Below the pieces are notes generated by a model. The model was not told where the DNA came from and did no database searches. It worked only from the letters and a program-made list of their open reading frames with translations. Below, piece after piece: positions 2,534-53,510 of a DNA stretch of 64,000 nt (its first letter is position 1; the number at the start of each line of letters is the position of its first letter). The DNA comes from Candidatus Limnocylindrales bacterium (GTDB lineage: Bacteria > Moduliflexota > Moduliflexia > Moduliflexales > JAUQPW01), in NCBI GenBank assembly GCA_035559535.1, contig DATMBG010000022.1, forward strand, positions 192,568 to 256,567, written 5' to 3'. Both the position numbers and the translations under genes were made by a program.

Positions 2534-2953
2534 TCAGGCCGGTTTTTCGATCTTTCGCTTGATATGGGTTTGAATAAAATGGATGATCTCTTCCAGGGAA
2601 GTTCCTACCGGAAAAATTCCATCCACACCCGATTCCTTCAGCTTAGGAATATCTTGATCTGGAATGGTTCCTCCCAGTACCACCAGCATCTCATCTAAAA
2701 CCCCTTTTTCTTTAAGAAATCCGGTTAACTTGGGAACAAGCCGCATGTGAGCGCCGGAAAGAAGACTTACACCGATTACATCGACATCCTCATGGATAGC
2801 TGCCTGGGCAACCTGATCCGGGGTCAGTCGCATTCCCAGGTAAATAACCTCCATACCGGCATCTCGCAAGGCCTTTGCGATGACCTTTATGCCTCGATCG
2901 TGTCCATCTAAACCGAGCTTTCCTAATAATACTTTAATTGGCCGTTCCGACAT
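2534..2953 (-). CDS. acyl-CoA mutase B12-binding small subunit (methylmalonyl-CoA mutase family, cobalamin-binding domain)
   Basis: IKVLLGKLGLDGHDRG cobalamin-binding DxHxxG motif. Start trimmed to the internal ATG (MSERPIKV) at 2951-2953 because the longer ORF N-terminus is a translation of the heptamer repeat. Confidence 0.8.
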   Translation of the reverse strand: MSERPIKVLLGKLGLDGHDRGIKVIAKALRDAGMEVIYLGMRLTPDQVAQAAIHEDVDVIGVSLLSGAHMRLVPKLTGFLKEKGVLDEMLVVLGGTIPDQDIPKLKESGVDGIFPVGTSLEEIIHFIQTHIKRKIEKPA

Positions 2954-2965
2954 AGGAATAAGCAG

Positions 2966-3138
2966 GAGAGTGTGGGAGTGTGGGAGTATGGAGGTATGGG
3001 AGTAGGGAAGTAGGGAAGTGTGGGAGTGTGGGAGTGTGGAAAGTAAAGTGTTCATACCTCCATACCCCCATACCCCCATACCTCCATACTCCCATACCCC
3101 CATACCTCCATACTCCCACACTCCCGTACTTTCATACC
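2966..3138. repeat. heptamer-repeat palindromic element, copy A1 (G-rich TGGGAGT-like arm / center / C-rich ACTCCCA-like arm)
   Basis: About 10 x 7-nt units RTGGGAG on one side, ~13 nt center, reverse-complement units on the other side. Forms a long imperfect hairpin. Lies between the two mutase subunit genes. Confidence 0.75.
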
Positions 3139-4908
3139 TTAAAAAACGGCGGGATCTTTGTAGTCTCCGTACAATTCTCGAAGTGTACCCATAATTTCCC
3201 CTTCTGTGGCATAAACCTTTACGGCCTCCAAAATCCGAGGCATGAGGTTTTCATTTTTCTCTACCGCCTCTCGTAGTCTATCCAGTGCCTTATCTACTTC
3301 TCTTTGATTTCGGGATTTTTTAACTTCTGCCAATCGTTCCTTTTGTCGGTCTTCTTCTGCCGGGTCGAATTCAAAGACCTCGATGGGTTGTTGAACTTCG
3401 GACTGATAGGCATTTACACCGACGACCAGATAATCCTTTTTTTCGATTTTTTGTTGATACTGATAGGCAGCTTCTGAGATTTCCTTTTCGATATATCCCT
3501 TCTCTATGGCTGTAAGCATCCCTTCGAGCATACTTCCCTTGCCGAGGGTCTCGATTTTTTCTATATACTCTTGGGCTTTTTCTTCCATGGTATTGGTTAG
3601 AGATTCTACGAAATAAGATCCGGCCAGTGGATCAATGGTATTGACGACCCCACTTTCATGTCCGATGATTTGCTGGGTGCGTAAGGATATCATCATGGCC
3701 TCTTCCGAAGGAATATCATAAGCTTCGTCGTATCCACTGACATGGAGAGATTGAGTTCCTCCCAGGACCGCGGCCAGTGCCTGAATGGTTCCCCGGATGA
3801 TGTTATTTTTAGGTTGTTCCCGAACCAGGGTAGAACCCAGGGTCTGGGTATGGAACCGAACCCGCATAGATTCGGCTTTTTTAGCCCCATATCGTTCTTT
3901 CATAATTCTGGCCCACAACCTTCTGGCAGCTCGAAACTTGCTGATCTCCTCAAAAAAATCATTGTGGCAACCGAAGAAGAAGGACAGCCGGGGTGCAAAA
4001 TCGTCTAGGGCGAGGCCGCGTTGAAGACCGCCTTCCACATAAGCCATCCCTTGGGCCAGGGTAAAAGCGAGTTCCTGTACGGCAGTAGACCCGGCCTCAC
4101 GGGTATGATAACCCGAGATGGAAATGGTATTCCAGTTGGGAACATAGCGGGTACAATACTCTACGACATCCAGGGTAATCTTAAAAGCCGGGCGGGGAGG
4201 AAGACCAAAGGTTTTCTGCCCATGGAATTCCTTTAACGAATCGTTCTGGACCGTTCCCCGCAAATCTTCCCATTTAACACCCCGTTTCTCGGCCACAGCC
4301 AATAAAAGACTCAACAACACAATTGCCGGATGGTTGATGGTTAAAGAAATACTCACCCGATCCAGCGGAATTCCTTCAAACAGCTCTTCCATATCCCGAA
4401 GGGTATCAATGGCAACTCCTAATCGTCCCACTTCTCCTTCTGCCAGAGGATGATCTGAATCATAACCTGTGAGAGTCGGATGATCAAAGTCCGTACTAAT
4501 ACCTGTTTGTCCATGCTTGAGAAGGAAGCGGTACCGTTCGTTGGTTGATCGGGCCGTTCCAAATCCGGCAATCTGCCGTCGGGTCCACAGCCGCCCCCGA
4601 TACATGGTGGGATATACCCCTCGGGTAAATGGAAAGGCACCGGGAAAGTTCAGATCCTTCAAATAATCCAGCTCCTTCACATCTTCAGGGGTGTAGACCC
4701 GCTTGACTTCCAGGTCAGAAACAGTTCGAAAGGTTTCACGCTGTTCAGGAGTCTTCTTAAGGACAGGAGCCAGGATCTCCGATTCCCATTTTTCTTGGGT
4801 TTCTTTGATCTGCTCCAGGGCTTTTTCATTAAAAAGTTTAGGGTCCATCTTTAAACCTCCGATTAACAAGGTATTTGGTTTTTTAAATTTCGGCCGTCTG
4901 TCCGCCAT
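3139..4908 (-). CDS. methylmalonyl-CoA mutase family large (catalytic) subunit, split type without B12 domain
   Basis: FTRGVYPTMYRGRLWTRRQIAGFG...TDFDHPTLTGYDSD signature of MCM/ICM catalytic barrel, 589 aa. Co-oriented and adjacent to the separate B12-binding subunit. Confidence 0.85.
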   Translation of the reverse strand: MADRRPKFKKPNTLLIGGLKMDPKLFNEKALEQIKETQEKWESEILAPVLKKTPEQRETFRTVSDLEVKRVYTPEDVKELDYLKDLNFPGAFPFTRGVYPTMYRGRLWTRRQIAGFGTARSTNERYRFLLKHGQTGISTDFDHPTLTGYDSDHPLAEGEVGRLGVAIDTLRDMEELFEGIPLDRVSISLTINHPAIVLLSLLLAVAEKRGVKWEDLRGTVQNDSLKEFHGQKTFGLPPRPAFKITLDVVEYCTRYVPNWNTISISGYHTREAGSTAVQELAFTLAQGMAYVEGGLQRGLALDDFAPRLSFFFGCHNDFFEEISKFRAARRLWARIMKERYGAKKAESMRVRFHTQTLGSTLVREQPKNNIIRGTIQALAAVLGGTQSLHVSGYDEAYDIPSEEAMMISLRTQQIIGHESGVVNTIDPLAGSYFVESLTNTMEEKAQEYIEKIETLGKGSMLEGMLTAIEKGYIEKEISEAAYQYQQKIEKKDYLVVGVNAYQSEVQQPIEVFEFDPAEEDRQKERLAEVKKSRNQREVDKALDRLREAVEKNENLMPRILEAVKVYATEGEIMGTLRELYGDYKDPAVF

Positions 4909-12505: not shown

Positions 12506-12579
<74 letters not shown>

Positions 12580-19357: not shown

Positions 19358-21862
19358 TTATTTTGCCGCAGATACCGGAAGATCTCCCAGCGAACCTACA
19401 GAAACTACAGGAAATACGCCCAAAAATTGAGAAGAAGAAGTAAGAATCCACCACTGCCCCGTAGAAGGTCGAAAGATTCCCAGATCGGTCCGTCCATCTC
19501 CATCATAATCTGCCTGAACCGGAAGATCTCCGGGTTGTCCCCATGCCCTTGTCACGATTCTCCTACTTCTAAGAATACCTATCCAGGTTCCTGTGCTGGG
19601 TCTCCAGACGGCTACATTGGCTAATCCATCTCCATCATAATCCCCAGGTACCGGAAAATCTCCCACAGTTCCTAAAACCCTAATGGTAAGCAGATTATTG
19701 CTAGAATTGGTAATAAACCACTGACCGGTGGAAGGTCTAAAAACAGCAATATCCGTCACACCATCTCCATCATAATCAGCCGGAACAGGGATGTCGCCGG
19801 GCATACCCCAAATTGTGGCTCCAAGGCCACCACTTGAGAAAAGGATCCACCATACACTGCCGAGGGGCCTCCAAACAGCACGATCCGTCAAGCCATCCCC
19901 ATCGTAATCTCCAGGAACCGGAAGATCTCCCGCCTGACCCCAGACCTGAATATCCTCACCGGCTGGAAGAAGAACATGCCACTCGCCGGTGGAAGGCCTA
20001 AAGAAGGCAAAATCGGCGGTTCCATCTCCATCGTAATCACCGGGAGTTGGAATATCTCCCGAAGATCCGAAGGAAACCTTTGAGGTCCTGCCGGATACCG
20101 ACCACTCTCCGGTTGTGGGATTCCAGACGGCAATATCATCATTCAACCCCCCATTGAAATTCGCCTTATCTGCCACAGGAACAGCCGGAATCAAAGGTAA
20201 GGTTTGTTGAATAACCCACACACTCCCGAGAGTTCCGGCATAGAGAATAGAAGGAGTTGTTGGATCTACTGCTAAAGCCTGGATACCCAGATTCGTCAAT
20301 CCTGTATTCATCACGCTCCAGTTTCCTCCTCCATCGAGGCTCTTGAACACACCCTCCAAGGTTCCCGCATAGAGAGTCACAGGGGTCACCGGATCGATAG
20401 CCAGGACTCGAACATCCAGATTCGTCAGTCCAGTACTGATACTGCTCCAACTGCCACCCCCATTGATGCTCTTGAAAATACCGTTACCGACGGTACCTGC
20501 ATACAGAGTTGCAGGGGTCGCCGGATCGATAGCCAAAGCCTGAATATTCAGATTCGTCAATCCCGTATTCATCACACTCCAGCTCCCACCCCCATTGATG
20601 CTCTTGAAAATACCGTTACCGGCAGTGCCCGCATACAGAATTGCAGGGGTCGTCGGATCGATAGCCAGAGCCTGAATATTCAGATTCGTCAGCCCGGTAT
20701 TTATTGCCCTCCAGCTTCCCCCCCCATCGGTACTCTTGAAGATCCCCCCACCTGAAGTCCCCGCATAGACCGTGGAAGGAGTCCCAGGATCGATAACAAG
20801 ATCCCGAATATTGAAGGCCGTCAGTATATCAAAGGCCGTCAGTCCGGTATTTATTGCCTTCCAGCTTCCCCCCCCATCGGTACTCTTGAAGATGCCTCCC
20901 GAAGTTCCTGCATAGACCGTGGAGGGATTTGTAGGATCGATAGCCAGATCCCGAATATTGAAGGCCGTCAGTTTGTTATTTACAGGGTTCCAGTTTACCC
21001 CCCCATCGGTACTCTTGAATACCCCACCATCGATAGTCCCTGCATACACCGTGGAAGGGGTTATGGGATCGATGACCAGAGTAAGAACACTCAGATTGGT
21101 CAATCCGGTATTCGCCACACTCCAGCTCCCCCCGCCATTGGTACTCTTGAAGATACCTCCTCCCAAAGTCCCTGCATACAGGATAGAAGAAGTTTTAGGA
21201 TCCACGGCCAGGATATAAACATCCAGGTTGGTCAGTCCAGTATTTACCGTATTCCAGTTTCCTCCTCCATCGGTACTCTTGAATACCCCACCTGAAGTCC
21301 CTGCATAGAGAATGGAGGAAGTTACAGGATCAACGGCCAGGGCTCGAACCTCCAGATTCGTCAACCCCGTATTTGCCACACTCCAGTTTCCTCCTTCATC
21401 GGTACTCTTGAATACCCCACCTGAAGTCCCTGCATAGAGAACGGAGGGAGTCGAGGGATCAACGGCCAGGGCTCGAACTTCCAGATTCGTCAACCCCGTA
21501 TTTGCCACACTCCAGTTTCCTCCTCCATCGGTACTCTTGAATACCCCACCTCCAAAAGTCCCTGCATAGAGAACGGAGGGGGTCGAGGGATCAACGGCCA
21601 GGGCTTTTATGTTTCCACCTTTCGGTCCATTGGTCGTCCATAGGTTAAACCCGGCAAAAGCCCTGTCTACCCCTAGAGAAAATAGAGTCAATAGAATTCC
21701 CACAAAGAGTATCTGGAGGCGGAGATATAAGGATAAAGTTTTTATCCCTGATTTACAAAAACTATAACGAAAGTCGGAAAGTAAATATTTTTTATCTTGC
21801 TTCTCACTGTTATTGCGTAACAGAGAAAGCAGGTTTTTTATAGATTCCCTTGGAGTTTCCAT
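19358..21862 (-). CDS. large membrane-anchored repeat protein: N-terminal TM, about 12 BNR/Asp-box-like repeats (YAGTxGGGVFKSTDGGGNW), C-terminal FG-GAP/VCBS-like repeats (GDYDGDGxTDxAVWRPSTGxW)
   Basis: Repeat consensus read directly from the translation. 834 aa. Confidence 0.8.
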   Translation of the reverse strand: METPRESIKNLLSLLRNNSEKQDKKYLLSDFRYSFCKSGIKTLSLYLRLQILFVGILLTLFSLGVDRAFAGFNLWTTNGPKGGNIKALAVDPSTPSVLYAGTFGGGVFKSTDGGGNWSVANTGLTNLEVRALAVDPSTPSVLYAGTSGGVFKSTDEGGNWSVANTGLTNLEVRALAVDPVTSSILYAGTSGGVFKSTDGGGNWNTVNTGLTNLDVYILAVDPKTSSILYAGTLGGGIFKSTNGGGSWSVANTGLTNLSVLTLVIDPITPSTVYAGTIDGGVFKSTDGGVNWNPVNNKLTAFNIRDLAIDPTNPSTVYAGTSGGIFKSTDGGGSWKAINTGLTAFDILTAFNIRDLVIDPGTPSTVYAGTSGGGIFKSTDGGGSWRAINTGLTNLNIQALAIDPTTPAILYAGTAGNGIFKSINGGGSWSVMNTGLTNLNIQALAIDPATPATLYAGTVGNGIFKSINGGGSWSSISTGLTNLDVRVLAIDPVTPVTLYAGTLEGVFKSLDGGGNWSVMNTGLTNLGIQALAVDPTTPSILYAGTLGSVWVIQQTLPLIPAVPVADKANFNGGLNDDIAVWNPTTGEWSVSGRTSKVSFGSSGDIPTPGDYDGDGTADFAFFRPSTGEWHVLLPAGEDIQVWGQAGDLPVPGDYDGDGLTDRAVWRPLGSVWWILFSSGGLGATIWGMPGDIPVPADYDGDGVTDIAVFRPSTGQWFITNSSNNLLTIRVLGTVGDFPVPGDYDGDGLANVAVWRPSTGTWIGILRSRRIVTRAWGQPGDLPVQADYDGDGRTDLGIFRPSTGQWWILTSSSQFLGVFPVVSVGSLGDLPVSAAK

Positions 21863-22120
21863 CCTGTCTATCCCTCCTCCCCGGCCCTAAACACCCCCCT
21901 TTACGTCTCTTATTTCTGTAGCGTAATGTAATAAAGTAAGTTAATTTTAAAAATGCTTTTTATATCGGAACAAAACCTGTTTTCCCAAGATTAAGAATAA
22001 TCTATCGAATGGTCTTTATAGGGCCGGGTCAAAGTTAAAATTCATGAACCAATTCCCTTGAGATACGCTATTACACTGTTACCTTAATTTTAGCCTCATA
22101 AAGTAGCTTTCACTTCCCAA

Positions 22121-22245
22121 CGCCCCTCTCCCGCAGCGTGGGAGAGGGGAGAAACTCCCCTTCTCCCGCAGTGACGGGAGAAGGGAGTTGGGGGGCTGAG
22201 GGCAGAGCAAAACACTGCTTCAAATCTAACTTTACAAAGTTAGAA
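22121..22245. repeat. GC-rich palindromic repeat element, family B copy 1 (two tandem hairpins built on CTCCCGCAG..GGGAG)
   Basis: cccctctcccgcagcgtgggagagggg and ccccttctcccgcagtgacgggagaagggag hairpins. Shares motifs with the 40125 and 53060 copies. Confidence 0.6.
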
Positions 22246-24315: not shown

Positions 24316-27069
24316 ATGATCCCATGGACCCAATCCGCAAAGGAAGAATTAGATCGTTATTCCGACCAAATTCGGCGTACGGTGGAATCATCGGGAGCCG
24401 ATCCTTCGATATTTATCACAGACATTTATCGGTACGTTGATGAAGCTATTGCTGCTTCTCACCTTCAGGTGGTAACGGAGGAGGATATCCGGCGAATCTT
24501 ATCCCAGATAGGCTTGCCTGGCTCCGATTCCATGGGATGGAAGAGAGATTTTGAACCTGAAATTCCTGTTCAAACAAATCCTTTCCATTCTGGGACAGAT
24601 CCTGGGACAGAAGTACCGAAGAGTCCAGGGATAAAGTCTTTACAAAGGTCGGATTTTAACCGGATTTACAAGAGGCCATCCGGTCTGTTTATTCTTTTGT
24701 TTGGTGTTGTACTTCCTCTGATAACTCTTGGGGTTGAATTAAGCACCCATCTATGTGCCAACGAATTTTTCGATCCGATTCCGACGACCTGGCATATTCT
24801 TTTGGTCGGGTTTGTGCCCCTTGCGAATCTTTTAGTTTGGCTGGCCGTCTGGAAGGGTAAAACCTCCTATCGACGGAAATTGGGATTAATCAATGGAATT
24901 GCACTGGGTGTGGCATTTTTTTACACACTCCCCTTTATTCCTCTCCTTCCCCTGAGTGTTTTTGCAATTATTTATTTTGGTATAGGATTGTTACCCATGG
25001 CGCCTCTTTTCTCTTTCATTTCAGCCGTCCTTTGTCGCCGTTACCTTCGACAGATGACCCTCGAGGCAACGCCCAGGAAGGTCCCAGGTCTTGGATGGGG
25101 GATTCTTTTAGCTCTCGTAGCTTTTGTGGCCGCCGATTTGCCAATTGTTCTCACCCGAATCGGTATACAGATGGCTGCTTCCCCTTCTTCCGAGATCAGC
25201 CTTCGAGGGATTCGATGGCTCCGGGCCATAGGGGATAAAGACCTTCTACTACAGGCCTGTTATCGGCGCCCTGCAAGGATATCGGATTTCTTCAGTTTTA
25301 TGGTTTCCATGGGAAATCTTCCTACCCCCGAAGAAGTCCGCAAGATTTACTACCGTGTTATGGGGAAGCCCTTTAACGCAGTTCCTCCACCAAAACTTGT
25401 TACCTTTGATCGTTGGAGTTTCTGGGACGAGCTTGATTTTGACCGGGATCAGGGTGGGGCTGTGGTGGGAGAACGGATAAAAGGACTTTCCCTGGTCGGC
25501 TCTCGACTGGATGGATCTTTGGATCCTGATGCCGTTTTGGTTTATACCGAATGGATCCTTATTCTCAAGAACAATTCCAATCGGCAACATGAAGCAAGAG
25601 CTCAAATCGCTCTCCCTCCAGGGGGAGTAGTTTCACGCGTAACGCTCTGGATCAACGGAGAGGAGCAAGAAGCCGCCTTTGGATCGCGAGGGAAGGTGCG
25701 GCAGACCTATGAACAGATCGTTCGACAACGGCGAGATCCTGTTCTCGTTACCACCAGCGGCCCTGATCGTGTCTTAGTCCAGTGTTTTCCTGTACCTCCA
25801 GGCGGAGAGATGAAAGTTCGAATTGGGATTACCGCACCACTTTTGTTGGAAACCAGGGACCGGGGGCTTTTTCGTTTACCTTACTTTTTGGAACGTAACT
25901 TTAGTATCTATGAAGAAGGTTCCCATTCTGTCTGGTTTGAATCGAGAAAGCCCATGGAAACCCTCAGCAAAACTCTTAAATTAGAACATTCCGACAACAA
26001 CCTCTATACCATCCGAGGAACCATGTCGGATCCCGATCTGACAACATCCCAGGCTATTATCCATGTGGGTCGGTCTGGAGAGGTCGTGCAGGCCTGGACC
26101 CCAGATCCTGTAAGCAAAAAGGAACAGATCATTCGTCAGATCATCCAAGAGAGGGAACCTCAGTCTCCGGCCCGGGTTATCCTTGTCGTTGATGGCTCTC
26201 AAGGTATGCAAGGGTTTCTTCCAGAAGTTATCGATGCCCTCTCCGGGCTCCCGGAAGGCATCGAATTGGGTTTGATCTTTGCCTCAGATGACGTTCGTCT
26301 CCTGGCAGGGTCGATACAAAAAGTTACAGCCGAATGGTATAGAACTCTTGCCGATCACCTGAAGAAAGAGAATTTTGAAGGAGGCCAGGATAACATCCCG
26401 GCCCTGATCAAGGGTTGGGACCTTGCAACGGAGCATCCAGATGGTATCATCCTGTGGATTCATGGACCCCAACCCATTCTTTTGCAAACAACAGAAGAAA
26501 TTCGGCAGAGATGGGAAAGACGACCTGACTCCCCTCATCTTTATGAGATCCAGGCCGGAGGTGGACCCAACCGTATCGTTGAGCAACTCGATGGGATCCC
26601 AGCCATAAAATCCATTCCACACCTGGGAAGTTTATCCGATGATTTGAAAAGACTGTTCTCCCCATGGCGTGGTGAGTCAAAAGAATGGGTGTTATTCCGT
26701 GAAAGAGTTACCCGAGAAAGCCTGGACGATTCGATCCCGGGTAAAGAGACCTCTGCCCATCTGGCTCGACTTTGGGCGAAGGATGAAATTCTGAAACGTG
26801 TTGTTTTCAAAGGGAGACCTGAATCTTCGAGTCCGAACCTGATAGAGGAAGCTCTTCAGCTTGCAATCAGCTATCAACTGGTAACTCCCCTTAGTGGAGC
26901 GGTTGTTCTGGAAACCCAGCAGCAATACCAACAAATGAATCTTGAGCCGGTCAAACCGGGTACAGTTCCAACCATCCCTGAACCGGAGACCTGGATGCTC
27001 CTGCTGGTGGTTGCTACGGTCCTGATAGGGGTCTTTTACCGATGGAAGATCTTGCCCGTTAGAGAATAG
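24316..27069 (+). CDS. PEP-CTERM-anchored protein with N-terminal polytopic membrane domain, VIT (vault protein inter-alpha-trypsin) domain and VWA domain; XrtN-system-like exosortase target
   Basis: C-terminus IPEPETWMLLLVVATVLIGVFYRWK is PEP followed by a TM helix and basic tail. A VIT-like block lies around AQIALPPGGVVSRVTLWINGEE...VQCFPVPPGGEMKVRIG. A VWA-like block lies around RVILVVDGSQGM. About six TM helices sit in residues ~120-290. Confidence 0.8.
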   Translation: MIPWTQSAKEELDRYSDQIRRTVESSGADPSIFITDIYRYVDEAIAASHLQVVTEEDIRRILSQIGLPGSDSMGWKRDFEPEIPVQTNPFHSGTDPGTEVPKSPGIKSLQRSDFNRIYKRPSGLFILLFGVVLPLITLGVELSTHLCANEFFDPIPTTWHILLVGFVPLANLLVWLAVWKGKTSYRRKLGLINGIALGVAFFYTLPFIPLLPLSVFAIIYFGIGLLPMAPLFSFISAVLCRRYLRQMTLEATPRKVPGLGWGILLALVAFVAADLPIVLTRIGIQMAASPSSEISLRGIRWLRAIGDKDLLLQACYRRPARISDFFSFMVSMGNLPTPEEVRKIYYRVMGKPFNAVPPPKLVTFDRWSFWDELDFDRDQGGAVVGERIKGLSLVGSRLDGSLDPDAVLVYTEWILILKNNSNRQHEARAQIALPPGGVVSRVTLWINGEEQEAAFGSRGKVRQTYEQIVRQRRDPVLVTTSGPDRVLVQCFPVPPGGEMKVRIGITAPLLLETRDRGLFRLPYFLERNFSIYEEGSHSVWFESRKPMETLSKTLKLEHSDNNLYTIRGTMSDPDLTTSQAIIHVGRSGEVVQAWTPDPVSKKEQIIRQIIQEREPQSPARVILVVDGSQGMQGFLPEVIDALSGLPEGIELGLIFASDDVRLLAGSIQKVTAEWYRTLADHLKKENFEGGQDNIPALIKGWDLATEHPDGIILWIHGPQPILLQTTEEIRQRWERRPDSPHLYEIQAGGGPNRIVEQLDGIPAIKSIPHLGSLSDDLKRLFSPWRGESKEWVLFRERVTRESLDDSIPGKETSAHLARLWAKDEILKRVVFKGRPESSSPNLIEEALQLAISYQLVTPLSGAVVLETQQQYQQMNLEPVKPGTVPTIPEPETWMLLLVVATVLIGVFYRWKILPVRE

Positions 27070-27180
27070 TAGAAGGGTGGGGGTGTGGGAGGGTGGGGGT
27101 AGATGTAAATTCTCCCATACTTTTACGCTCCTTTCTACCCTTCCATACTCCCATACTCCCACACCCTCATACTTCCCTCT
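27070..27180. repeat. heptamer-repeat palindromic element, copy A2
   Basis: gggtgggggtgtgggagggtggggg / center agatgtaaatt / ctcccatac...ccatactcccatactcccacaccctcatac. Sits in the 112-nt gap between the PEP-CTERM gene and the exosortase gene. Confidence 0.7.
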
Positions 27181-27181
27181 G

Positions 27182-27991
27182 ATGAACAACCAGAGTTTCC
27201 TTTTTATTCTCCAGTTTCTTGCCTTTTGGCCGGTTTGGAAATGGTATGTTCTCAGGCTGATAGATTCTCCCCAGGAACTATTTGGCTTAATCGCTTTAGG
27301 TACCGCGGGAGGATTTATTTTATGGAGAAGGCCTGATTTAAGTTCCGCCAAATCCCGTCTGATTTTGCCGGCCGTTTTTGTGCTTCTCTATACGGTGACT
27401 TACCCTTTTCTTCCATTCCTGATAAAGGCTGCTATTGCGCTCGTTGCCATAGGTTGTACCCTAAGTTCCTATCGATGGGGGATATCTTTTCATCCTGGAA
27501 TCTGCGGGCTTCTCCTCCTATCCCTCCCCGTTATCCCCTCTCTACAATTCTACCTGGGATATCCACTCCGTGTGTTAACAGGTATCCTAGCGGTTCCTCT
27601 CCTTCAATTGGGAGGTTTTACCGTAGTTCGAGAAGGAACTTCCTTAAATTGGGATGGTCAACTCATCTTAATTGATGCACCTTGTAGTGGGGTTCGGATG
27701 TTATGGTCGGCCCTTTATCTCACTTTTACCTTGACCTGTTTCTACGGATTTAATACAGGAAAAACCTGTCTGGCCGTTCTTCTCTCATTCCTGGGGATTA
27801 TTGCAGGAAATGCGCTCCGTTCGGCTGCCTTATTCTATCCTGAGGCCCATACCCTTGCTCTCCCCTCCTGGACCCACGAAGGGATTGGGATGGTCGTATT
27901 TTTCTTCACAGCCATTTTTATTGTGGGAGGTATTCGGTGGATTCGAAAAAAATTTCCATTGGTCAAGCGGGTGGTCAAGCGGGACGCTTAA
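27182..27991 (+). CDS. exosortase (small EpsH/Xrt family, XrtN-like)
   Basis: Eight TM helices. Conserved LIDAPCSGVRMLW with the catalytic Cys, and a conserved Arg in AGNALRSAAL. Start trimmed to ATG 27182 because the upstream ORF extension is repeat sequence. Confidence 0.85.
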   Translation: MNNQSFLFILQFLAFWPVWKWYVLRLIDSPQELFGLIALGTAGGFILWRRPDLSSAKSRLILPAVFVLLYTVTYPFLPFLIKAAIALVAIGCTLSSYRWGISFHPGICGLLLLSLPVIPSLQFYLGYPLRVLTGILAVPLLQLGGFTVVREGTSLNWDGQLILIDAPCSGVRMLWSALYLTFTLTCFYGFNTGKTCLAVLLSFLGIIAGNALRSAALFYPEAHTLALPSWTHEGIGMVVFFFTAIFIVGGIRWIRKKFPLVKRVVKRDA

Positions 27992-40047: not shown

Positions 40048-40124
40048 AAATCTTTCCTTTCTCAGAATCTGATAGGGGGAGCCGGTTATAGAAATAAGGC
40101 CCGATAATTCCCCTTCTCATCTCT

Positions 40125-40250
40125 TGGCCCTCACCCCCAGCTCCCTCCCTCTCCTCCCTCCCCGTCCACGGGGAGGGAGGGGGTGGGAGTGGAGAGGGGA
40201 GTTGGGGAGTGAAAGCAGCCCTATGAGCCAAAATTAGGTAAACAGTTTAC
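40125..40250. repeat. GC-rich palindromic repeat element, family B copy 2 (hairpin plus conserved ggggagtgaaagcaRccctatgagNcaaaattaRgtaaacagt module)
   Basis: ctccctccccgtccacggggagggag hairpin. The 3' module is near-identical to the one at 53100-53150. Confidence 0.65.
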
Positions 40251-40257
40251 TACCTGC

Positions 40258-41166
40258 TTACAACTGGTTATTTTGATGACCACCTACTCGAATTCCGGCC
40301 AGAGCCTCGATGGCATGAATAACCGAGGATACATCTTCTTCCCCGTGACCGAGGGCACGGGCTGCTTTGAACATTTCAAGGGCTGTTGCAGCCAGGGGAA
40401 GGGGGACTCCGAGTTCATCTCCCGTTGCTAAAACCAGCTTCAGATCCTTGCACATATGTTTGAGGGCAAAGTGGGTTTCAAAGTCCCGGTTGATAATTTT
40501 AGGGCCTCGCATCTCCATATTACCCGTTTTAGCACCTCCGGCCAGGGTACACTCCTTAAGATCGTTCAGGTTAAGTCCCGCTTTGGCACCCAGGGCTAAG
40601 CATTCGGCAACGGCTTCCATGGTTGCCCCCACCATCAACTGGATACACATTTTCGTGTAAGCGCCCATACCCTGGCCTCCCATGTAAGTTATCTTTTTCC
40701 CCATAGCCTGGAAAATTTCCAGACAGTCTTCAAAGATCTTTCGATCCCCACCGACCATAATCCCTAGACTGGCTTCCTCGGCTGCCTTTTTACTTCCTAC
40801 CACCGGAGCATCCAACAGGTAACAACCTCTGGCTTTGACCTGTTCTGCAATCTCCTTGCTGACCATAGGGGAAATGGTACTCATATCAATAATAATAGTC
40901 CCTTTCTTGGCCCCCTGGAGCACGCCCTGATCCCCTAAAATAACCTCCTTCACGTCGGGGGAATCGGAAACCATGGTAATGACAACGTCTGCGTTCTCTC
41001 CAACAGCCCTGGGAGAATTCACAGCTATTGCACCTGAGGACACCAGTTCTCGGGTTTTTTCTTGGGTTCGATTATAAACCGTCAGAGGGAAACCCGCCTT
41101 TAAAATATTTCTGGCCATGGGCCTTCCCATAACTCCCAGTCCGATGAATCCGACTCTTTTCTTCAT
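40258..41166 (-). CDS. NAD(P)-dependent beta-hydroxyacid dehydrogenase (3-hydroxyisobutyrate dehydrogenase / tartronate semialdehyde reductase family)
   Basis: VGFIGLGVMGRPMARN Rossmann motif. Start trimmed to ATG 41166 (MKKRVGFIGLG). Confidence 0.85.
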   Translation of the reverse strand: MKKRVGFIGLGVMGRPMARNILKAGFPLTVYNRTQEKTRELVSSGAIAVNSPRAVGENADVVITMVSDSPDVKEVILGDQGVLQGAKKGTIIIDMSTISPMVSKEIAEQVKARGCYLLDAPVVGSKKAAEEASLGIMVGGDRKIFEDCLEIFQAMGKKITYMGGQGMGAYTKMCIQLMVGATMEAVAECLALGAKAGLNLNDLKECTLAGGAKTGNMEMRGPKIINRDFETHFALKHMCKDLKLVLATGDELGVPLPLAATALEMFKAARALGHGEEDVSSVIHAIEALAGIRVGGHQNNQL

Positions 41167-42574: not shown

Positions 42575-42688
42575 ACACCCTCCTTATAGTTGCAAAAACA
42601 CCCCTTCAACCCTTTAAGTAAATTTCTAGTCGATATTTATAGTATACCTCTATTTAGACAAAATCCATAGAACTATTTTATTTAAAAG

Positions 42689-42818
42689 TATGGGAGTGTG
42701 GGAGTATGGGGGTAGGGAAGTGGGGAAGTATGGGGGTAGGGAAGTGGGAAAGATAGAACTCCCATACTCCTACACTCCCACACTCCCATACTCCCATACT
42801 CCCACACTTCCACACTCT
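42689..42818. repeat. heptamer-repeat palindromic element, copy A3
   Basis: tatgggagtgtgggagtatgggggtagggaag... / center agatagaa / ctcccatactcctacactcccacactcccatactcccatactcccac. In the divergent promoter region between gltA and the lipoprotein gene. Confidence 0.75.
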
Positions 42819-42841
42819 TACTTAGATTCTATTCGAAGGAC

Positions 42842-44251
42842 ATGAAACCCTGGGTCACTTTTTTGCTAGAACTGCTTGCCCTGGCGGGAATGTTGAGCTG
42901 TAGTACGTCTGAAAAACAAAGTTATGTGGCGCCAAAGGAAACTCCAACAACCCCTACGGAAAGGGATATATTACCCAAAAGTAGCGTGAATTGGATTGGA
43001 CATTGGTTGGGTCAGGATAAACGTGAAACCCTTGTAAGGGAAGTAGCTCGGGAATTCGAGTTTTTGAATCCGGAGATAGAGGTTAATCTCAAATTCCCTC
43101 AAGAGATATTCGGAAATCGTAGCAAGGCTTTAATCGCCAAACAGTATGCCGACAGGATTCGTAAAGGTAACCTGGATTGGGATGTTATCTGGATGGATCC
43201 CGGAATTTATCAATTGGTGGCCCAGGATCTGGGGGATGCCGAGTGGGGAAAAAAGTATCTGGTTAACTTTGAGGAGGTGGATGGCTTTAAGGAAACGCAG
43301 AAGCCTTTTATTCTGGAAGACCCTATCTATAAGAATCAAACCGGTGGTATACTCATCGGACCTTTTATAGAAGGATTCTATTGGGCCCTTTTTTATAATA
43401 CGGAAGTTGCCAAAAGAATAGGAATAGAAATTAAGCAAGAAGATATGACTTTCGACGATCTGTTAGGATATGTTAAAAAGGTTTACGAATACAGGCAGAA
43501 GAACCACGTGGATATCGCGGCATTTTATGAGGCCAGGGATGCATTTTCCTTGGGGGTTCTGTTTCAAAGCCTGGTCACCTCAGAGCTTAGGGATTTTCGT
43601 AAAGTAAAAGAAGAGGTAACCTCGGAAGAAAAATGTGCAGCGTTACTGAAGACTTTTCGAGCCTTTGAAGAGTTAGGGAAATATGATCCCTTAATCCCTT
43701 CCCATGCCAGTAATCTCTGGTTTGAAACGAAGCATCTTGCCTTAGAGGATAAGGTACTTTTCCAGATCGGGGGAACCTGGATGTACAATACCTGGCGTCA
43801 GATATCCGAAGACAAAATGAAGAAGATGATTCCTGCTGAGTTACCCGTTTTTCAGGAAGTGAATTATTATCCCGGTGGCTATATCCCAACCTGGGCGGTG
43901 TTTAAAGATGCACCCCATCGGGATAACGGCATTAAGTTACTGTTATTCTGGAGTACACCCAAGGTAGCCGAAAAGTGGGTACGGTATACGAAAAGTCCAA
44001 CGGGTTTACGAGGTCATTTCTCCACTCCGGAAATTGGAGCCGATGTGTTTGAAAAATTTCAACATAGAATCACAACCAAATACGGTAAAAATGTTTTGGC
44101 AGTTTCCAATGCCGGGTATTTATTAGGAAAGGAAAACAGGCTCCTTTTGAAGGACATATCCGAAAAAATTATAGAACTCCTGGAAGGCCGAACAACGGCA
44201 GAGACGGCATATCACGAAGTCATCGTAAAAGCCGGATTGGAGAAAAATTAG
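42842..44251 (+). CDS. extracellular solute-binding-like lipoprotein (lipobox LSC), likely sensory partner of the downstream two-component system
   Basis: Signal peptide with LAGMLSCS lipobox. SBP family 1-like composition. Immediately upstream of the kinase. Confidence 0.65.
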   Translation: MKPWVTFLLELLALAGMLSCSTSEKQSYVAPKETPTTPTERDILPKSSVNWIGHWLGQDKRETLVREVAREFEFLNPEIEVNLKFPQEIFGNRSKALIAKQYADRIRKGNLDWDVIWMDPGIYQLVAQDLGDAEWGKKYLVNFEEVDGFKETQKPFILEDPIYKNQTGGILIGPFIEGFYWALFYNTEVAKRIGIEIKQEDMTFDDLLGYVKKVYEYRQKNHVDIAAFYEARDAFSLGVLFQSLVTSELRDFRKVKEEVTSEEKCAALLKTFRAFEELGKYDPLIPSHASNLWFETKHLALEDKVLFQIGGTWMYNTWRQISEDKMKKMIPAELPVFQEVNYYPGGYIPTWAVFKDAPHRDNGIKLLLFWSTPKVAEKWVRYTKSPTGLRGHFSTPEIGADVFEKFQHRITTKYGKNVLAVSNAGYLLGKENRLLLKDISEKIIELLEGRTTAETAYHEVIVKAGLEKN

Positions 44252-44268
44252 ACGCTGAATTAAAGGAC

Positions 44269-46155
44269 ATGCCAAAGACAAAGAGGTTTCAGGATAGTTT
44301 AATCTTTAAAATAGGAGTCGTTATTGTTGCGGTAGAATCTATCATCCTTTTTGCCCTGGGTTTTTATTATATTAATCGATTTTCCAACGAGATTGATGAA
44401 AGGATTCACCGACAACTCCAAATTCCGGGGATTCTCATGGGCAAAGGTTTATTAAATTATGAATCGGTAGAGGATAAAAAAACCATGGAACAATTGGTTG
44501 GGGAAACATTGATAGATGCCCTGTTGATCGGTATTAACCACAAAGTATTTTACTCCCTCAATGGGGATTATGTGGGACGAAAAATTACGGAAATACCCGA
44601 CATAAAGTTCATGGACAGACTGGATGAAACCCTGACAGAGATTGAAGAAATGAAGATATCGGAAGGTCAGAAGAACTATCGAATCAGTATAGCCCCTATT
44701 CGCCTGGAAGATGGGAAAATGGTTGGCTTTTTGTATATTAAGGCCGGAACCGATCAACTGGAACATAAAAAAAAGATCCTTACAATGGTTTTTGTAGCTG
44801 GCTCTCTTTTTTGTATTCTACTTACAACCTGTGCTACCGTTTGGTTACTCCATTGGATTATCTCTAAAAGGATTCAAAATACCCTGGCCTATTTAAAGAG
44901 GGTGGAGGCGGGCCATCTGGAAACAAGAATAGATCCTATCTTATCTCAAGATGAAATAGGCCTTCTCCAAAAAGGCATTAATTCCATGGTATCGGAAATA
45001 GAAGAACAGACCAGAGCACTTCAGGAAAGCGAAGATCGGTATAAAGGCCTGGTGGAGTCCTGCCCGGATGCTATTTTTGTCGAACAGGAGGGAAAAATAG
45101 TTTATGTAAATCCGGCGGGTTTGGATCTTTTCGGTTATAAAGCCATATTTGAGTTAAAGGGATATGGCCTTCAGGATTTATTCATTCGGCAAGATGATAA
45201 TCCCATCGAAAAATGGATAAGCTCCACCTCTGAGACCCGATCTTCTTTTATGGAGGGGAAACTGACTCGAAAGGATGGAGAACTCATCGATGTGGAAGTA
45301 ATACTTACCCTTACCCGGTATCAGGGTAAACCGGCCGTACAAATAATGGTTCGAGATGTCACCGAGATAAAGAATCTCAGACAAAAGACCCAGAGAATGA
45401 AACAACTTGCGGATTTGGGACAGCTTTCCGCAACCATCGCCCATGAAATTCGTAATCCCCTGGCGTCTATCCGTTTAGGTCTTGAGAGGCTTTCCGACCG
45501 GCTGGCGATTCCTGAAGCTTATAAAACTATTTTTAGCAATATTGAGCAAGGTATCTCACGAATCCAGGCCATCATCGATGGAATTTTAGACTTTACCCGC
45601 CCGGTAATACCCGATTTAAAGAAAGTAAACCTTCATGATCTATTAGATAGCAGTCTTTCTTCGGTACAGAACGAGTTGGAACAGGCCAGGATAATTATTA
45701 TAAAAATTTACATGCCGATTCAACCCTACGTTCTTGTAGATCCTTATCAAATGATCCAGGTCTTTATTAATCTCTTTCTGAACGCAAAACAGGCCATGCC
45801 ATCCGGTGGAAAGCTTACAATCCGTACGATTCTTCGAATTCCTCCGGCCAATCGCAGGGCAAGCTTCGGCTCAACCCAGGACAAACTCCCTCAAGATATC
45901 ACCGACCGGGTCCCTCTTATAGAAGTTCAAATTGAGGATACGGGAAAAGGAATCCCTCCGGAGAATCTGGATAAGATTTTTACTCCCTTCTTTACTACAC
46001 GGGCCAATGGAATCGGTTTAGGACTGGCCGTAGTTTCTCGAATTCTTGAACAACATCAAGCTCAAATATGTGTTGAAAGTCAGGTTGGAGTTGGCACAAA
46101 ATTTATCATAAAACTTCCTTTCCCAGGAGACGACTATGAAAAAAGCTACTCGTAA
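44269..46155 (+). CDS. sensor histidine kinase (two TM, HAMP, PAS, HisKA, HATPase_c)
   Basis: H-box ATIAHEIRNPLASI. N/G1/G2 boxes (DTGKGIPPEN, GIGLGLAV). Confidence 0.85.
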   Translation: MPKTKRFQDSLIFKIGVVIVAVESIILFALGFYYINRFSNEIDERIHRQLQIPGILMGKGLLNYESVEDKKTMEQLVGETLIDALLIGINHKVFYSLNGDYVGRKITEIPDIKFMDRLDETLTEIEEMKISEGQKNYRISIAPIRLEDGKMVGFLYIKAGTDQLEHKKKILTMVFVAGSLFCILLTTCATVWLLHWIISKRIQNTLAYLKRVEAGHLETRIDPILSQDEIGLLQKGINSMVSEIEEQTRALQESEDRYKGLVESCPDAIFVEQEGKIVYVNPAGLDLFGYKAIFELKGYGLQDLFIRQDDNPIEKWISSTSETRSSFMEGKLTRKDGELIDVEVILTLTRYQGKPAVQIMVRDVTEIKNLRQKTQRMKQLADLGQLSATIAHEIRNPLASIRLGLERLSDRLAIPEAYKTIFSNIEQGISRIQAIIDGILDFTRPVIPDLKKVNLHDLLDSSLSSVQNELEQARIIIIKIYMPIQPYVLVDPYQMIQVFINLFLNAKQAMPSGGKLTIRTILRIPPANRRASFGSTQDKLPQDITDRVPLIEVQIEDTGKGIPPENLDKIFTPFFTTRANGIGLGLAVVSRILEQHQAQICVESQVGVGTKFIIKLPFPGDDYEKSYS

Positions 46156-47509
46156 AAAGATCTTACTTGTAGAAGATGACAGATTATTCCAACAGATGGT
46201 GAAGGATTTCCTTGTAGATTTCTACGAAGTGATACCTTCTGAGTCCGCCGAGAGTGCGTTGAATATTTTAAGGAAAACCGTTCCAGATTTGATTTTGCTG
46301 GATATTCGATTACCTGAAATGGACGGTATAGAAGCTTTAAAAAGAATCAAAACTCTTTGGCCCGATATACCCATTTTAATGTTAACGGCAGTAGATCGAG
46401 TAGCAACGGTGGTCGAGGCTATGAAATTAGGTGCCTATGATTATCTGACCAAACCCCTGGTCGGCAAAGAACTCTTGATAAAGATCGACCGGGCTTTGGA
46501 ATCCCTGGAGATTAAGCGAGAACTCGAACGGCGTCGGAAGTTGCAACTGGCTACAAATAGAGAGTATCGGCTTATAGGAGTTAGTGCAGCTTTAGAAAAG
46601 GTAAGGGAACAAATACAAATTGCAGCGGTTTCCGATATCACTGTTTTAATCCAGGGCGAAACGGGAACCGGTAAGGAACTGGTTGCTCGAGAGATTCATG
46701 CTCGTAGTTCCCGTGCCGATGAGCCTTTTGTGGCTGTGAATTGTGGAGCTATTCCTAAAGATTTGATAGAATCAGAATTCTTTGGTTATAAAAAAGGAGC
46801 TTTTACGGGAGCTCAGAGAAATGAAGTGGGAAAATTTCAGTTGGCGGACCGTGGAACGCTACTGCTGGATGAAATTAGCGAGTTACCCCTCGATGCGCAA
46901 ACCAGGCTTTTACGGGTTTTGGAAGAGGAAGAATTTTACCCGGTCGGCAGTACCGAGCTTGTGAGAGTGGATGTTCGAATCATAGCCTCAACCAACAAAA
47001 ATTTGAAACACCTGATGGAACAGAGAGCTTTTAGAGAAGACCTGTTTTTCCGCTTGAACGTGTATCCCATTTTCCTTCTACCCCTTCGGGAACGTCCGGA
47101 GGATATTATTCCTCTGGCCGAATATTTTATGGAACGTTTTAGTACCAAATTTGGTAAGAATTTCACGGCGATTAGTCCAGAAGCCAAAGAGATCCTGCTA
47201 AAATATCCCTGGAGGGGAAATGTTCGAGAACTTCGCAACGTCATCGAACGGGTGGTCATCTCCGAGAAAGGAACCCTCATTGAAAAAGAACATCTCTCCT
47301 TCATCGAGACCCTTTCTCCCATCGAGCTCTCCAAAGACTCTCTTAAACTTCCCGAGATCGGTTTAGATAGGATGTTAGAAGAAACAGAAAAAAGGTTACT
47401 ACTCGAAGCCCTGGAACTTGCCAGGGGAAGCAAACCCAAAGCCGCCGAATTGTTAAAGATCTCTCCCCCCTCCTTTTATTACCGTTTAGAGAAATATGGA
47501 CTACACTAG
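46136..47509 (+). CDS. sigma-54-dependent response regulator (NtrC family: REC + AAA+ + Fis-type HTH)
   Basis: Receiver domain with the phospho-acceptor Asp. GETGTGKELVAREIH Walker A. GAFTGA sigma-54 contact motif. C-terminal HTH. Confidence 0.9.
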   Translation: MKKATRKKILLVEDDRLFQQMVKDFLVDFYEVIPSESAESALNILRKTVPDLILLDIRLPEMDGIEALKRIKTLWPDIPILMLTAVDRVATVVEAMKLGAYDYLTKPLVGKELLIKIDRALESLEIKRELERRRKLQLATNREYRLIGVSAALEKVREQIQIAAVSDITVLIQGETGTGKELVAREIHARSSRADEPFVAVNCGAIPKDLIESEFFGYKKGAFTGAQRNEVGKFQLADRGTLLLDEISELPLDAQTRLLRVLEEEEFYPVGSTELVRVDVRIIASTNKNLKHLMEQRAFREDLFFRLNVYPIFLLPLRERPEDIIPLAEYFMERFSTKFGKNFTAISPEAKEILLKYPWRGNVRELRNVIERVVISEKGTLIEKEHLSFIETLSPIELSKDSLKLPEIGLDRMLEETEKRLLLEALELARGSKPKAAELLKISPPSFYYRLEKYGLH

Positions 47510-48210: not shown

Positions 48211-48499
48211 AATAACGTATGAATGGTAAGGGAAAGTACACTTTTTACAATTCTAACTTTAATATAGTTGCGAGATTGATGCCAATCCGCAAATCCTTTG
48301 TTAGGACAACTGCTGGCGAGTCGGACTAAGCGGACGTAGTTAGGGTTTATGATGAAATTGAAGGAGCTACTTTTTTATTGACAAGAGCTTTTTTCTCAAA
48401 ATATTCTTTTTTATCCCAACAAGGTATCAGGATTTCCTATACCTCTAATCCCCTGTCGTTACTGCGTTGCAAATCTCTAGTTATCAAGTTTTCCGGCAG

Positions 48500-48610
48500 T
48501 GAGAGTACGGGAGTGGGGAGGTATGGGAGTGTGGGAGTTCTATCTTCCCCACTTCCATACCCCCATACTTCCCCACTCCCATCCTTCCATACTTCCATAC
48601 TAAAAGTATA
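48500..48610. repeat. heptamer-repeat palindromic element, copy A4
   Basis: gtgagagtacgggagtggggaggtatgggagtgtgggag / center ttctatctt / ccccacttccatacccccatacttccccactcccatccttccatacttccatac. Confidence 0.7.
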
Positions 48611-50339: not shown

Positions 50340-50460
50340 TCAAACCCCCAAGGATCCCTTTTGAGACCCGGAGACCCGGAGAAATTTCTCCGCGTCCCCA
50401 TGTCTCCGCGTCTCCGTGTCCCCATGTCTCCGCGTCTCAAAAGGGGTCCTTGGGTCTTCC
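50340..50460. repeat. tandem direct repeats of a ~16-nt unit TCTCCGCGTCYCCRTG (about 3 copies), preceded by an inverted GAGACCCGGAGAAATTTCTCCGCG palindrome
   Basis: Read directly: ccggagacccggagaaatttctccgcgtccccatgtctccgcgtctccgtgtccccatgtctccgcgtctc. Located in a divergent promoter region. Confidence 0.6.
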
Positions 50461-52905: not shown

Positions 52906-53059
52906 AGGAAGGGATGAAAATTAAAATGCCTCTACAGATTTCTTGGATGGGTAGCTCATTCAGGCAGTAAATTAAGGAACAAAGGGATCTTTCAGAAACT
53001 TCCAGAAGAAGAAGGAACAAGTAGTACTTTGTTTACTTAGTTTTGTTTAACGTTTAAGT

Positions 53060-53201
53060 GGCCCTCACCCCCGGCCCCTCTCCCACGCTGGGGAGAGGGG
53101 AGCTGGGGAGTGAAAGCAACCCTATGAGGTCAAAATTAAGTAAACAGTAGTAGGATAACGCTTTAAGATTCTACAGTAGTAGGATAACGCTTTAAGATTC
53201 T
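53060..53201. repeat. GC-rich palindromic repeat element, family B copy 3, plus an adjacent 28-nt tandem duplication (cagtagtaggataacgctttaagattct x2)
   Basis: cccctctcccacgctggggagagggg hairpin followed by the conserved module ggggagtgaaagcaaccctatgaggtcaaaattaagtaaacagt. The direct duplication lies at 53146-53201. Confidence 0.65.
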
Positions 53202-53510
53202 TTTTCCTATCCACCCTGATGCGCAGGGACGATGGGGGTAGTTGGTAGGGCATCCTGAAGGCCGGTACTAAATACGTACCTACCAGCCATCTTTCCTTGT
53301 ATGTACCCGCGGGCTGATCATCGAGGGGTTTATACCTGCAGCCCGCATTTTACAATGTTGGTTCGTGAGAGTAGGCTCCACCTATCTACTCTCACGGCCT
53401 GGAACAGGCCCTGGAGGAGAGAATAAGGTAAGTTTCCCCTCTGAAAGGGAAACCTGACAAATCCCTTTTAGGACGAGGTCTTAGCGACCTCTTCCTCCTG
53501 GGTAGGGGAT

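Follow-up and report, generated by a model that had tools for sequence, protein, structure and literature searches.

The DNA stretch under study (hereafter, the window) is a 64,000-nt segment of contig DATMBG010000022.1, from an assembly labelled Candidatus Limnocylindrales bacterium, and its short intergenic gaps carry tandem-repeat elements that can form hairpins and make up a dispersed family, as the original prediction had recognized. In each of the four copies described there (copies 1 to 4), a G-rich tandem array is followed by a spacer of 12-38 nt and then by a reverse-complementary C-rich array. The arrays had been read as 7-nt repeats, and this periodicity was shown to be wrong, since Tandem Repeats Finder (TRF) returned a period of 8 for every arm in the window together with 16- and 24-nt super-periods; the repeat unit of copies 1-4 is the octamer RTGGGAGT / ACTCCCAY. 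A scan of the window with the two-unit motif RTGGGAGTRTGGGAG, allowing up to two mismatches, gave 32 matches, every one within copies 1-4 at the positions originally proposed, against a mean of 0.53 and a maximum of 3 in shuffled sequences.

Copy 1 lies between an acyl-CoA mutase N-terminal-domain gene (3139-4908, minus strand) and a B12-binding-domain gene (2534-2953, minus strand). On the plus strand, it comprises a G-rich arm at 2964-3035 of about nine octamer units (GTGGGAGT, ATGGAGGT, AGGGAAGT and others; TRF period 8), a spacer or loop at 3036-3055 (gtggaaagtaaagtgttcat), and a C-rich arm at 3056-3135 of about ten units (ACCTCCAT, ACCCCCAT, ACTCCCAC and others), the last being G-rich on the minus strand, that is, on the sense strand of the genes. 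Read in gene sense, the G-rich arm begins 3 nt past the stop codon of the mutase large subunit (3139-3141), and the opposite arm stops 10 nt short of the ATG of the B12 subunit (2953). A similar fit was observed for copy 2, which is located between a gene for a VIT-domain protein resembling exosortase-sorted proteins (24316-27069) and an exosortase gene (27182-27991): its G-rich arm (27077-27100, plus strand, three units) begins 7 nt past the stop codon of the VIT-domain gene (gene end 27069) and its C-rich arm (27139-27178, plus strand, five units) stops 3 nt short of the exosortase ATG (27182), with a spacer (27101-27138) that holds degenerate C-type units too. Copy 3, with a G-rich arm of seven units (42690-42745, plus strand) and a C-rich arm of eight (42758-42821, plus strand), has divergent citrate synthase and solute-binding-protein genes as its neighbours, and its C-rich arm stops 20 nt short of the ATG at 42842. 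Copy 4 adjoins an ilvD-family gene (48624-50321, minus strand); its plus-strand C-rich arm (48551-48598, six units) is G-rich in the ilvD sense direction, where it begins 25 nt past the ilvD stop codon (48624), and its plus-strand G-rich arm (48499-48538, four to five units) is the distal C-rich arm in that direction. Pfam and NCBIfam assignments agreed with the gene contexts that had been proposed for all four copies.

The count of four holds for the RTGGGAGT unit. A fifth octamer hairpin with another unit had been missed, however; it occupies 50340-50460 between the ilvD gene and a PilB-like ATPase gene and contains 2.5 units of GAGACCCG at 50363-50382 and 6.5 units of TCTCCGCG at 50387-50438, these arrays being enclosed by an outer inverted repeat of about 20 nt.

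The folding capacity that had been claimed for the copies was supported by RNA structure prediction, which gave energies from -51 to -125 kcal/mol: -125 for copy 1 (z -12.6 versus shuffles), -51 for copy 2 (z -4.8), -86 for copy 3 (z -9.6), and -54 and -61 on the two strands of copy 4. The fifth hairpin was predicted to fold at -69 kcal/mol (z -8.5). No T/U-run tail was present and no terminator-like site overlapped any copy, so that identity with intrinsic terminators was ruled out. Known RNA families were ruled out likewise, because a search of the whole window against Rfam at the gathering score gave no match on any copy; its sole match was a tRNA gene at 12506-12579 (minus strand). The view that the elements are not repetitive extragenic palindromes (REP) or their mosaic form BIME, nor HIP1, nor transposable elements of the classical miniature inverted-repeat type (MITEs) was also found to hold.

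Direct inspection of the sequence showed all six reading frames of the arrays to be free of stop codons, which accounts for the spurious N-terminal extensions of the MGVWEYGG type that had been noticed among the open reading frames (ORFs). These extensions are indeed artefacts, and stop-free arrays of this kind yield false N-termini in annotation.

Comparison with related loci revealed presence/absence differences of the sort that had been put forward as a check. Copy 1 is absent from L121, whose mutase is 89% identical and in which only 20 nt separate the two mutase genes; the C-terminus of the protein and the native stop codon are identical in L121 and the window, and copy 1 therefore sits directly behind the stop. 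In L123, a 97% relative, an array is found at the place of copy 1 with a different unit order, and the contig breaks within it. The site of copy 2 is occupied in L213 (91% relative) by a shorter, different C arm, and here too the contig ends in the element. At copy 4, only the arm adjoining the ilvD stop is present in L124 (about 94% identical; the same lineage as GCA_030550175.1), again with the units in another order, and the plus-strand G-rich arm is replaced by about 730 nt of different sequence, homology with the window being picked up again exactly at the outer edge of the copy. The region of copy 3 (42680-45070) has been deleted in L124 via a CTATTTT microhomology with its left end 10 nt from the array. 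The fifth hairpin falls in a block colinear with L124 at 93% identity, the L124 sequence at the hairpin itself not having been inspected. The elements are accordingly dynamic, and a single arm can occur alone or be replaced.

Separately, relative to 42680-45070 and 45210-47045 of the window, the loci L124/L125 have lost the solute-binding-protein gene, part of a 628-aa ORF (44269-46155), and the N-terminal part of a sigma-54 activator, of which a 166-aa fragment is left. It was also noted that short-read contigs of relatives end within arrays (the end of the L123 contig and the start of the L213 contig), which means that assemblies are broken up by such elements and that counts taken from draft genomes are probably too low.

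Such fast turnover between close relatives is more in keeping with selfish or neutral elements than with conserved regulators, and it bears on the idea, in line with the role suggested in the original prediction, that the hairpins are host-beneficial post-transcriptional devices which, in a REP/BIME-like manner, set subunit ratios by protection from 3' exonucleases or by attenuation of read-through. The placement of two copies between cistrons of an operon and of one just past a stop codon, together with the very stable stems, would suit such a role, and an equal idea has been proposed for hairpins between hupS and hupL (PMC2670836). Nevertheless, copy 1 is missing from the 89% relative that has the same operon, relatives at 91-97% protein or about 94% nucleotide identity vary in their arms and in the order of the units, terminator T tails are lacking, the fold energies show no sense-strand bias, and one copy lies in a divergent promoter region; a regulatory role is plausible but considered unlikely.

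To define the distribution of the elements, the exact array 22-mer TGGGAGTRTGGGAGTRTGGRRG was searched in contigs representing one genome per species. At least 120 loci were obtained, spread over about 60 assemblies that bear at least 13 labels at phylum level, where about one chance match was expected. The labels comprised Bacteroidota, Rhodothermota, Planctomycetota, Verrucomicrobiota/PVC, Lentisphaerota, Acidobacteriota, Chloroflexota, Armatimonadota, Cyanobacteriota (including the complete genome of Calothrix PCC 7716), Gemmatimonadota, Ignavibacteriota, Desulfobacterota, Pseudomonadota and Marinimicrobia. Only three matches fell on viral contigs, and phage-borne spread was rejected on this basis.

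The same distribution weighs on the possibility that the copies are conventional MITEs moved in trans by a transposase, with the arrays serving as terminal inverted repeats. Many dispersed copies, inverted ends and presence/absence between relatives are what such elements would show, and a shared terminal repeat would yield a fixed polarity. On the other hand, a spread over at least 13 phylum-level labels with very few viral-contig matches, highly variable arm lengths, common solo arms, the lack of a target-site duplication at one filled/empty pair, and the failure to see a transposase in the window or adjoining the arrays make this explanation very improbable.

Rules governing the arms were derived from the 22-mer loci, all counts being among the matches listed. 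For arm pairs up to 200 nt apart, the order was G then C in 46 cases and C then G in none, whereas for arms more than 340 nt apart the two orders were about equal (8 and 7, respectively). A sense-strand stop codon was present within 30 nt upstream of the G-rich arm in 89 of 209 arms, with a sharp mode at 7 nt. The modal unit number was four (73 of 200 arms), a count biased by the need for about three units in the database scan. Degeneracy is greater in the outer units than in the inner, and the outer units retain the AGT ending. Genes bracketed by G and C arms 1-2 kb apart were considered as cargo and rejected, as they proved to be ordinary host genes between two independent arrays, each attached to a stop codon; only PF05635 genes, described below, behave as loop cargo.

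Two further candidates were tried on these loci. Since G:U pairs on one strand become A:C mismatches on the other, the fold energies of the two strands were compared, and no sign of selection on sense-strand RNA structure was obtained, the energies having no strand bias. Element-specific covariation of the arms was rejected for most cases, complementarity to an element's own arm being no better than that across elements. In a few elements, L009, L015 and L097 among them, the two arms do have private unit variants in common, e.g., GTGGTAGT / ACTACCAC in L009, which suggests that one arm can be copied from the other. In addition, behind the RTGGGAGT arrays of L002, L029, L050, L035, L005, L019 and L001 (Bacteroidota, Planctomycetota and others), further short-unit arrays were often seen, with the units GTCAACG, GCCAACC, TACGCTT, TTGCAAGT, GGGAGTTC and GGAAGGGA; intergenic regions can thus carry several layers of tandem repeats.

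In L010 and L006, a gene of 140-150 aa is enclosed by G and C arms. Its product matched PF05635, the family of the 23S rRNA intervening-sequence protein, at E 1e-30, as well as TIGR02436 (four-helix-bundle protein) and, more weakly, Avd, a protein of diversity-generating retroelements; counting these two, genes of this PF05635 / TIGR02436 subfamily, which as a rule are bracketed by arrays, were noted in L010, L006, L030, L001, L012 and L064. In the reverse search, an alignment of the array-linked PF05635 proteins retrieved 80 metagenome loci (L133-L212). Of the 80, 46 had arrays of period 8, 16 or 24 within 200 nt upstream of the gene, 50 had them downstream and 37 had them on either side, many of the contigs ending early; the upstream arrays were G- or purine-rich and the downstream ones C-rich. 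The periods were 8 (66 arrays), 16 (32) and 24 (9), as compared with 7 (10) and 9 (11), and array density was 107 per 30 kb near the PF05635 gene versus 28 per 129 kb farther off. Furthermore, alignment of inverted flanks scored at least 30 in 48 of 70 loci, versus 11 of 70 for direct flanks. None of the 40 PF05635 loci checked for rRNA location lies in an rRNA gene.

The unit sequences around these genes vary widely while the 8-nt register is kept, as exemplified by GTGTGGGT, GAGACTKA, GAAGGGGT, GGGACGGA, GGTGACAG, GAAAGAAC, RTGGGAGT and TCTCCGCG; the last, the unit of the fifth hairpin in the window, flanks PF05635 genes in L162 and L180. Protein identity and unit similarity were correlated (r = -0.24, permutation p ~0.001), which fits co-inheritance of the gene with its arrays. 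In the ORF-bearing members of the class, a PF05635 / TIGR02436 four-helix-bundle gene stands between the arms; this is the family to which the genes of 23S rRNA intervening sequences belong, and it is homologous to Avd. Our literature search found no paper linking PF05635 genes to tandem-repeat arms; for the octamer itself, it returned unrelated primers only and no work naming it.

A strict 8-nt register whatever the unit sequence, along with the correlation between protein and unit, might be taken to mean that a DNA-binding protein, be it a nucleoid protein, a global regulator or the PF05635 protein, binds to the arrays with one protomer per 8 nt. Paired octanucleotide sites in Geobacter have in fact been annotated as putative IHF/HU or global-regulator sites (PMC2700814). 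However, the units differ greatly between lineages, two families occur even within the window, and the window has no PF05635 gene; such binding would also leave the G-then-C polarity and the stop-codon proximity unexplained. We regard this possibility as rather improbable.

The homology of PF05635 to Avd, the partner of retroelement reverse transcriptases (PMC10053308), is likewise one of the points in favour of a quite different origin, in which the elements are repair scars formed by templated, telomerase-like or reverse-transcriptase addition of repeats at broken 3' ends followed by head-to-head joining. The G-then-C order is the one that joining two G-strand 3' ends head to head would produce, the outer units are more degenerate than the inner ones, and structural differences from the relative begin exactly at array edges. 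Yet this scheme is wholly speculative: neither a reverse transcriptase nor a template RNA was identified, the copy 3 deletion is accounted for by the CTATTTT microhomology, and proximity to stop codons is not predicted. It is accordingly given hardly any credence.

[quoted passage not shown] The octamer elements are a variant of a repeat type noticed before, and the class overlaps all three.

In heterocystous cyanobacteria, the STRR sequences are heptamer arrays able to fold into hairpins between hupS and hupL, and a part in transcript stability or in translational coupling has been suggested for them (PMC2670836). Like the octamer copies, they have short tandem units, many intergenic copies and possible hairpins between cistrons. 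They differ in having units of 7 nt, against the 8 nt assigned to the octamer elements by TRF, and another unit sequence, and in their described range, which takes in heterocystous cyanobacteria only, as against at least 13 phylum-level labels for the octamer; no link of STRR to PF05635 genes was found in the literature. The STRR units are CCCCAGT, TTGGTCA and CAACAGT, and STRR1 and STRR3 end in AGT as the octamer units do.

The GGGAATC / GGGGAYT heptamer arrays of Xanthomonas and Nostoc reported by Rehm et al. (2015) are intergenic, lie at most 50 bp from a sense stop codon, prefer four units, include 70-75 convergent inverted pairs, and form G-quadruplexes (G4) in vitro (PMC4692102). They share with the octamer one GGG tract per unit, convergent pairs able to form stem-loops, the four-unit mode and a length that differs between close relatives, and their convergent pairing and stop-codon proximity recur in the octamer arrays (46:0 and 89/209 arms, respectively). 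Their period is 7 rather than 8, they are confined to particular genera, and no cargo gene has been reported for them.

This resemblance raises the question of whether the octamer arrays are simple-sequence repeats in which four GGG units (a G3N5 motif) form G4 or i-motif structures near gene ends. The G3N5 spacing is indeed present in the 8-nt unit and the mode across loci is four units, which agrees with the four-unit preference, stop proximity, convergent pairs and in vitro G4 of the heptamers. Against this, unit numbers in the window copies range from 3 to 10, the partner arm, being fully complementary, would outcompete G4, and the requirement for about three units in the scan biases the unit-number count. 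Moreover, the G4 idea put forward for the heptamers does not cover octamers without a G tract: many PF05635-flanking octamers (GAGACTKA, GAAAGAAC and GGTGACAG) have no GGG tract yet keep the register and polarity. A G4-based explanation is thus deemed improbable.

In Geobacter metallireducens, 24 pairs of four tandem octanucleotides (GTTGCTYN, class 1) and 21 pairs of TCTCCGTS (class 2) have been described on opposite strands (PMC2700814). These paired sites lie 3' of genes, are absent from G. sulfurreducens, and have been read as regulator or IHF/HU sites (PMC2700814). As in the octamer elements, three to four tandem units of 8-9 nt stand on each strand with variable spacing 3' of genes. In the window, only the fifth hairpin (50387-50438) has a unit equal to the class 2 consensus TCTCCGTS, the class 1 unit is unrelated to RTGGGAGT, and no polarity rule, fold or cargo analysis has been reported.

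A further comparison is with the intervening sequences (IVSs) of rRNA genes, which consist of an inverted-repeat stem with an optional S23p (PF05635) ORF, are excised by RNase III, and are regarded as selfish and sporadic; in the Coxiella IVS, tandem heptamers (GACAGAT x3) stand just 5' of the ORF (PMC4990558). This layout, a stem with an optional PF05635 ORF in the loop, is the same as that of the ORF-bearing octamer hairpins. The stem is present in all window copies and the ORF in none of them, the ORF standing between the arms in related loci. The two differ in location, since the 23S rRNA IVSs occupy helix 9, 25 or 45, whereas the window copies lie between protein-coding genes and the window contains no rRNA gene; and RNase III excises IVSs, whereas cleavage of the window copies by this enzyme is conjectural.

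The REP / BIME / REPIN sequences of Proteobacteria resemble the octamer elements in being dispersed extragenic palindromes that are often intra-operonic, non-autonomous and abundant, and they can serve as 3' exonuclease barriers. REPs are single imperfect palindromes of 20-40 nt, unlike the octamer arms, which are tandem arrays of variable length. Their mobilization depends on RAYT transposases (PMC3116915). In the 64 kb covered here, neither a RAYT nor a REP consensus was seen. Eukaryotic Foldback (FB) transposons have long terminal inverted repeats of short tandem units, variable arm length and an optional central cargo. As they are eukaryotic, much larger and transposase-associated, their likeness to the octamer elements is architectural only.

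We read copies 1-4, together with the fifth hairpin, as ORF-less foldback elements of an IVS-like class, that is, as selfish or near-neutral DNA whose folding allows it to be tolerated within transcription units, and assign this reading a probability of about 0.5. The figure is a blend of two parts: that the elements are octamer foldback elements of a widespread multi-phylum class is probable, and that their tolerance operates at the RNA level through folding is a tentative proposal.

The hairpin architecture, the octamer register, the arm polarity, the nearness to stop codons, the turnover among relatives, the occurrence across phyla and the link with PF05635 were observed directly. By contrast, Rho avoidance, RNase III processing, any influence on expression and the mode of copy dispersal are inferred, and we propose the following. 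Fast turnover would take place through slippage plus gain or loss of an arm. Within a transcript, the G-rich arm would be transcribed first, so that the C-rich arm would be paired on emerging and would offer no loading site for Rho; the absolute G-then-C polarity on both strands would be explained because the C-rich arm is, as proposed, never open to Rho. With a stem starting a few nucleotides past the upstream stop and ending just before the next start, the insert would be looped out and the cistrons would stay adjacent. The stem of 30-70 bp would likely be an RNase III substrate or an exonuclease barrier, as in the rRNA IVSs, and by either effect a copy may secondarily alter the relative stability of the flanking cistrons.

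Several observations weigh against this interpretation. Sense RNA folds no better than antisense (4 versus 5 co-directional cases), and within a genome a G arm pairs equally well with the C arms of other elements as with its own. Copy 3 has no stop codon close to it, its location being a divergent promoter region. The comparison of filled and empty sites at copy 1, a single pair, showed no target-site duplication, and no transposase or other dispersal machinery was found in the 64 kb of genome in view. With respect to the cargo, a PF05635 gene adjoins the array in only 6 of about 120 RTGGGAGT loci among the matches listed, and neither jackhmmer nor tblastn detected a PF05635 gene or remnant in the window or in the ORF-less hairpins, so that remnants of this gene were rejected as a component of the latter. 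The PF05635 sample represents one subfamily, with 52-70% identity to the query, and the correlation between protein and unit could also have its source in shared host ancestry.

A broader and more doubtful extension of the foldback reading is that the hairpins represent the ORF-less majority of a pan-bacterial, transcript-resident class of elements whose complete form is a PF05635 gene within inverted arrays of 8-nt units, the 23S rRNA IVSs being its rRNA-resident minority. Short tandem-repeat hairpins such as STRR, the Xanthomonas heptamers and the Geobacter paired sites have been noticed for decades in single genomes and have stayed unexplained, and for PF05635 / TIGR02436, a protein family of great abundance in bacteria, a function is known only in diversity-generating retroelements. 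The occurrence of the octamer across phyla, its strict polarity, its adjacency to stop codons and the arrays bracketing PF05635 genes link these observations in a testable way, and this wider pattern makes the octamer elements more than a single-genome curiosity. If the extension were true, the invariant 8-nt register and the G-first polarity would reflect either the binding of the element's own protein to the arrays or the way in which the arrays are copied, and the long-orphan protein family and the decades-old STRR-type repeats would have a common explanation.

A second dispersed repeat family was observed in the window in three copies, at 22070-22215 (minus strand), 40120-40262 (plus strand) and 53050-53160 (plus strand). 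Its hairpin is C-rich and then G-rich, the opposite of the octamer elements, and is followed by a conserved tail GTGAAAGCARCCCTATGAG..CAAAATTARGTAAACAGT. Directly behind one of its copies, a perfect tandem duplication of a 29-nt unit (ACAGTAGTAGGATAACGCTTTAAGATTCT) spans 53144-53201, and the region 52997-53307 gave no alignment with the relative L124. As for coding repeats, an 834-aa ORF (19358-21862, minus strand) contains long tandem repeats at 20274-21604 with periods of 129-147 nt (about 44-49 aa). Finally, the taxonomic labels conflict, which makes the assignment uncertain: the exosortase is 100% identical to a protein of a MAG labelled Candidatus Limnocylindrales (Chloroflexota), and the best named match of the mutase is labelled Nitrospira sp.

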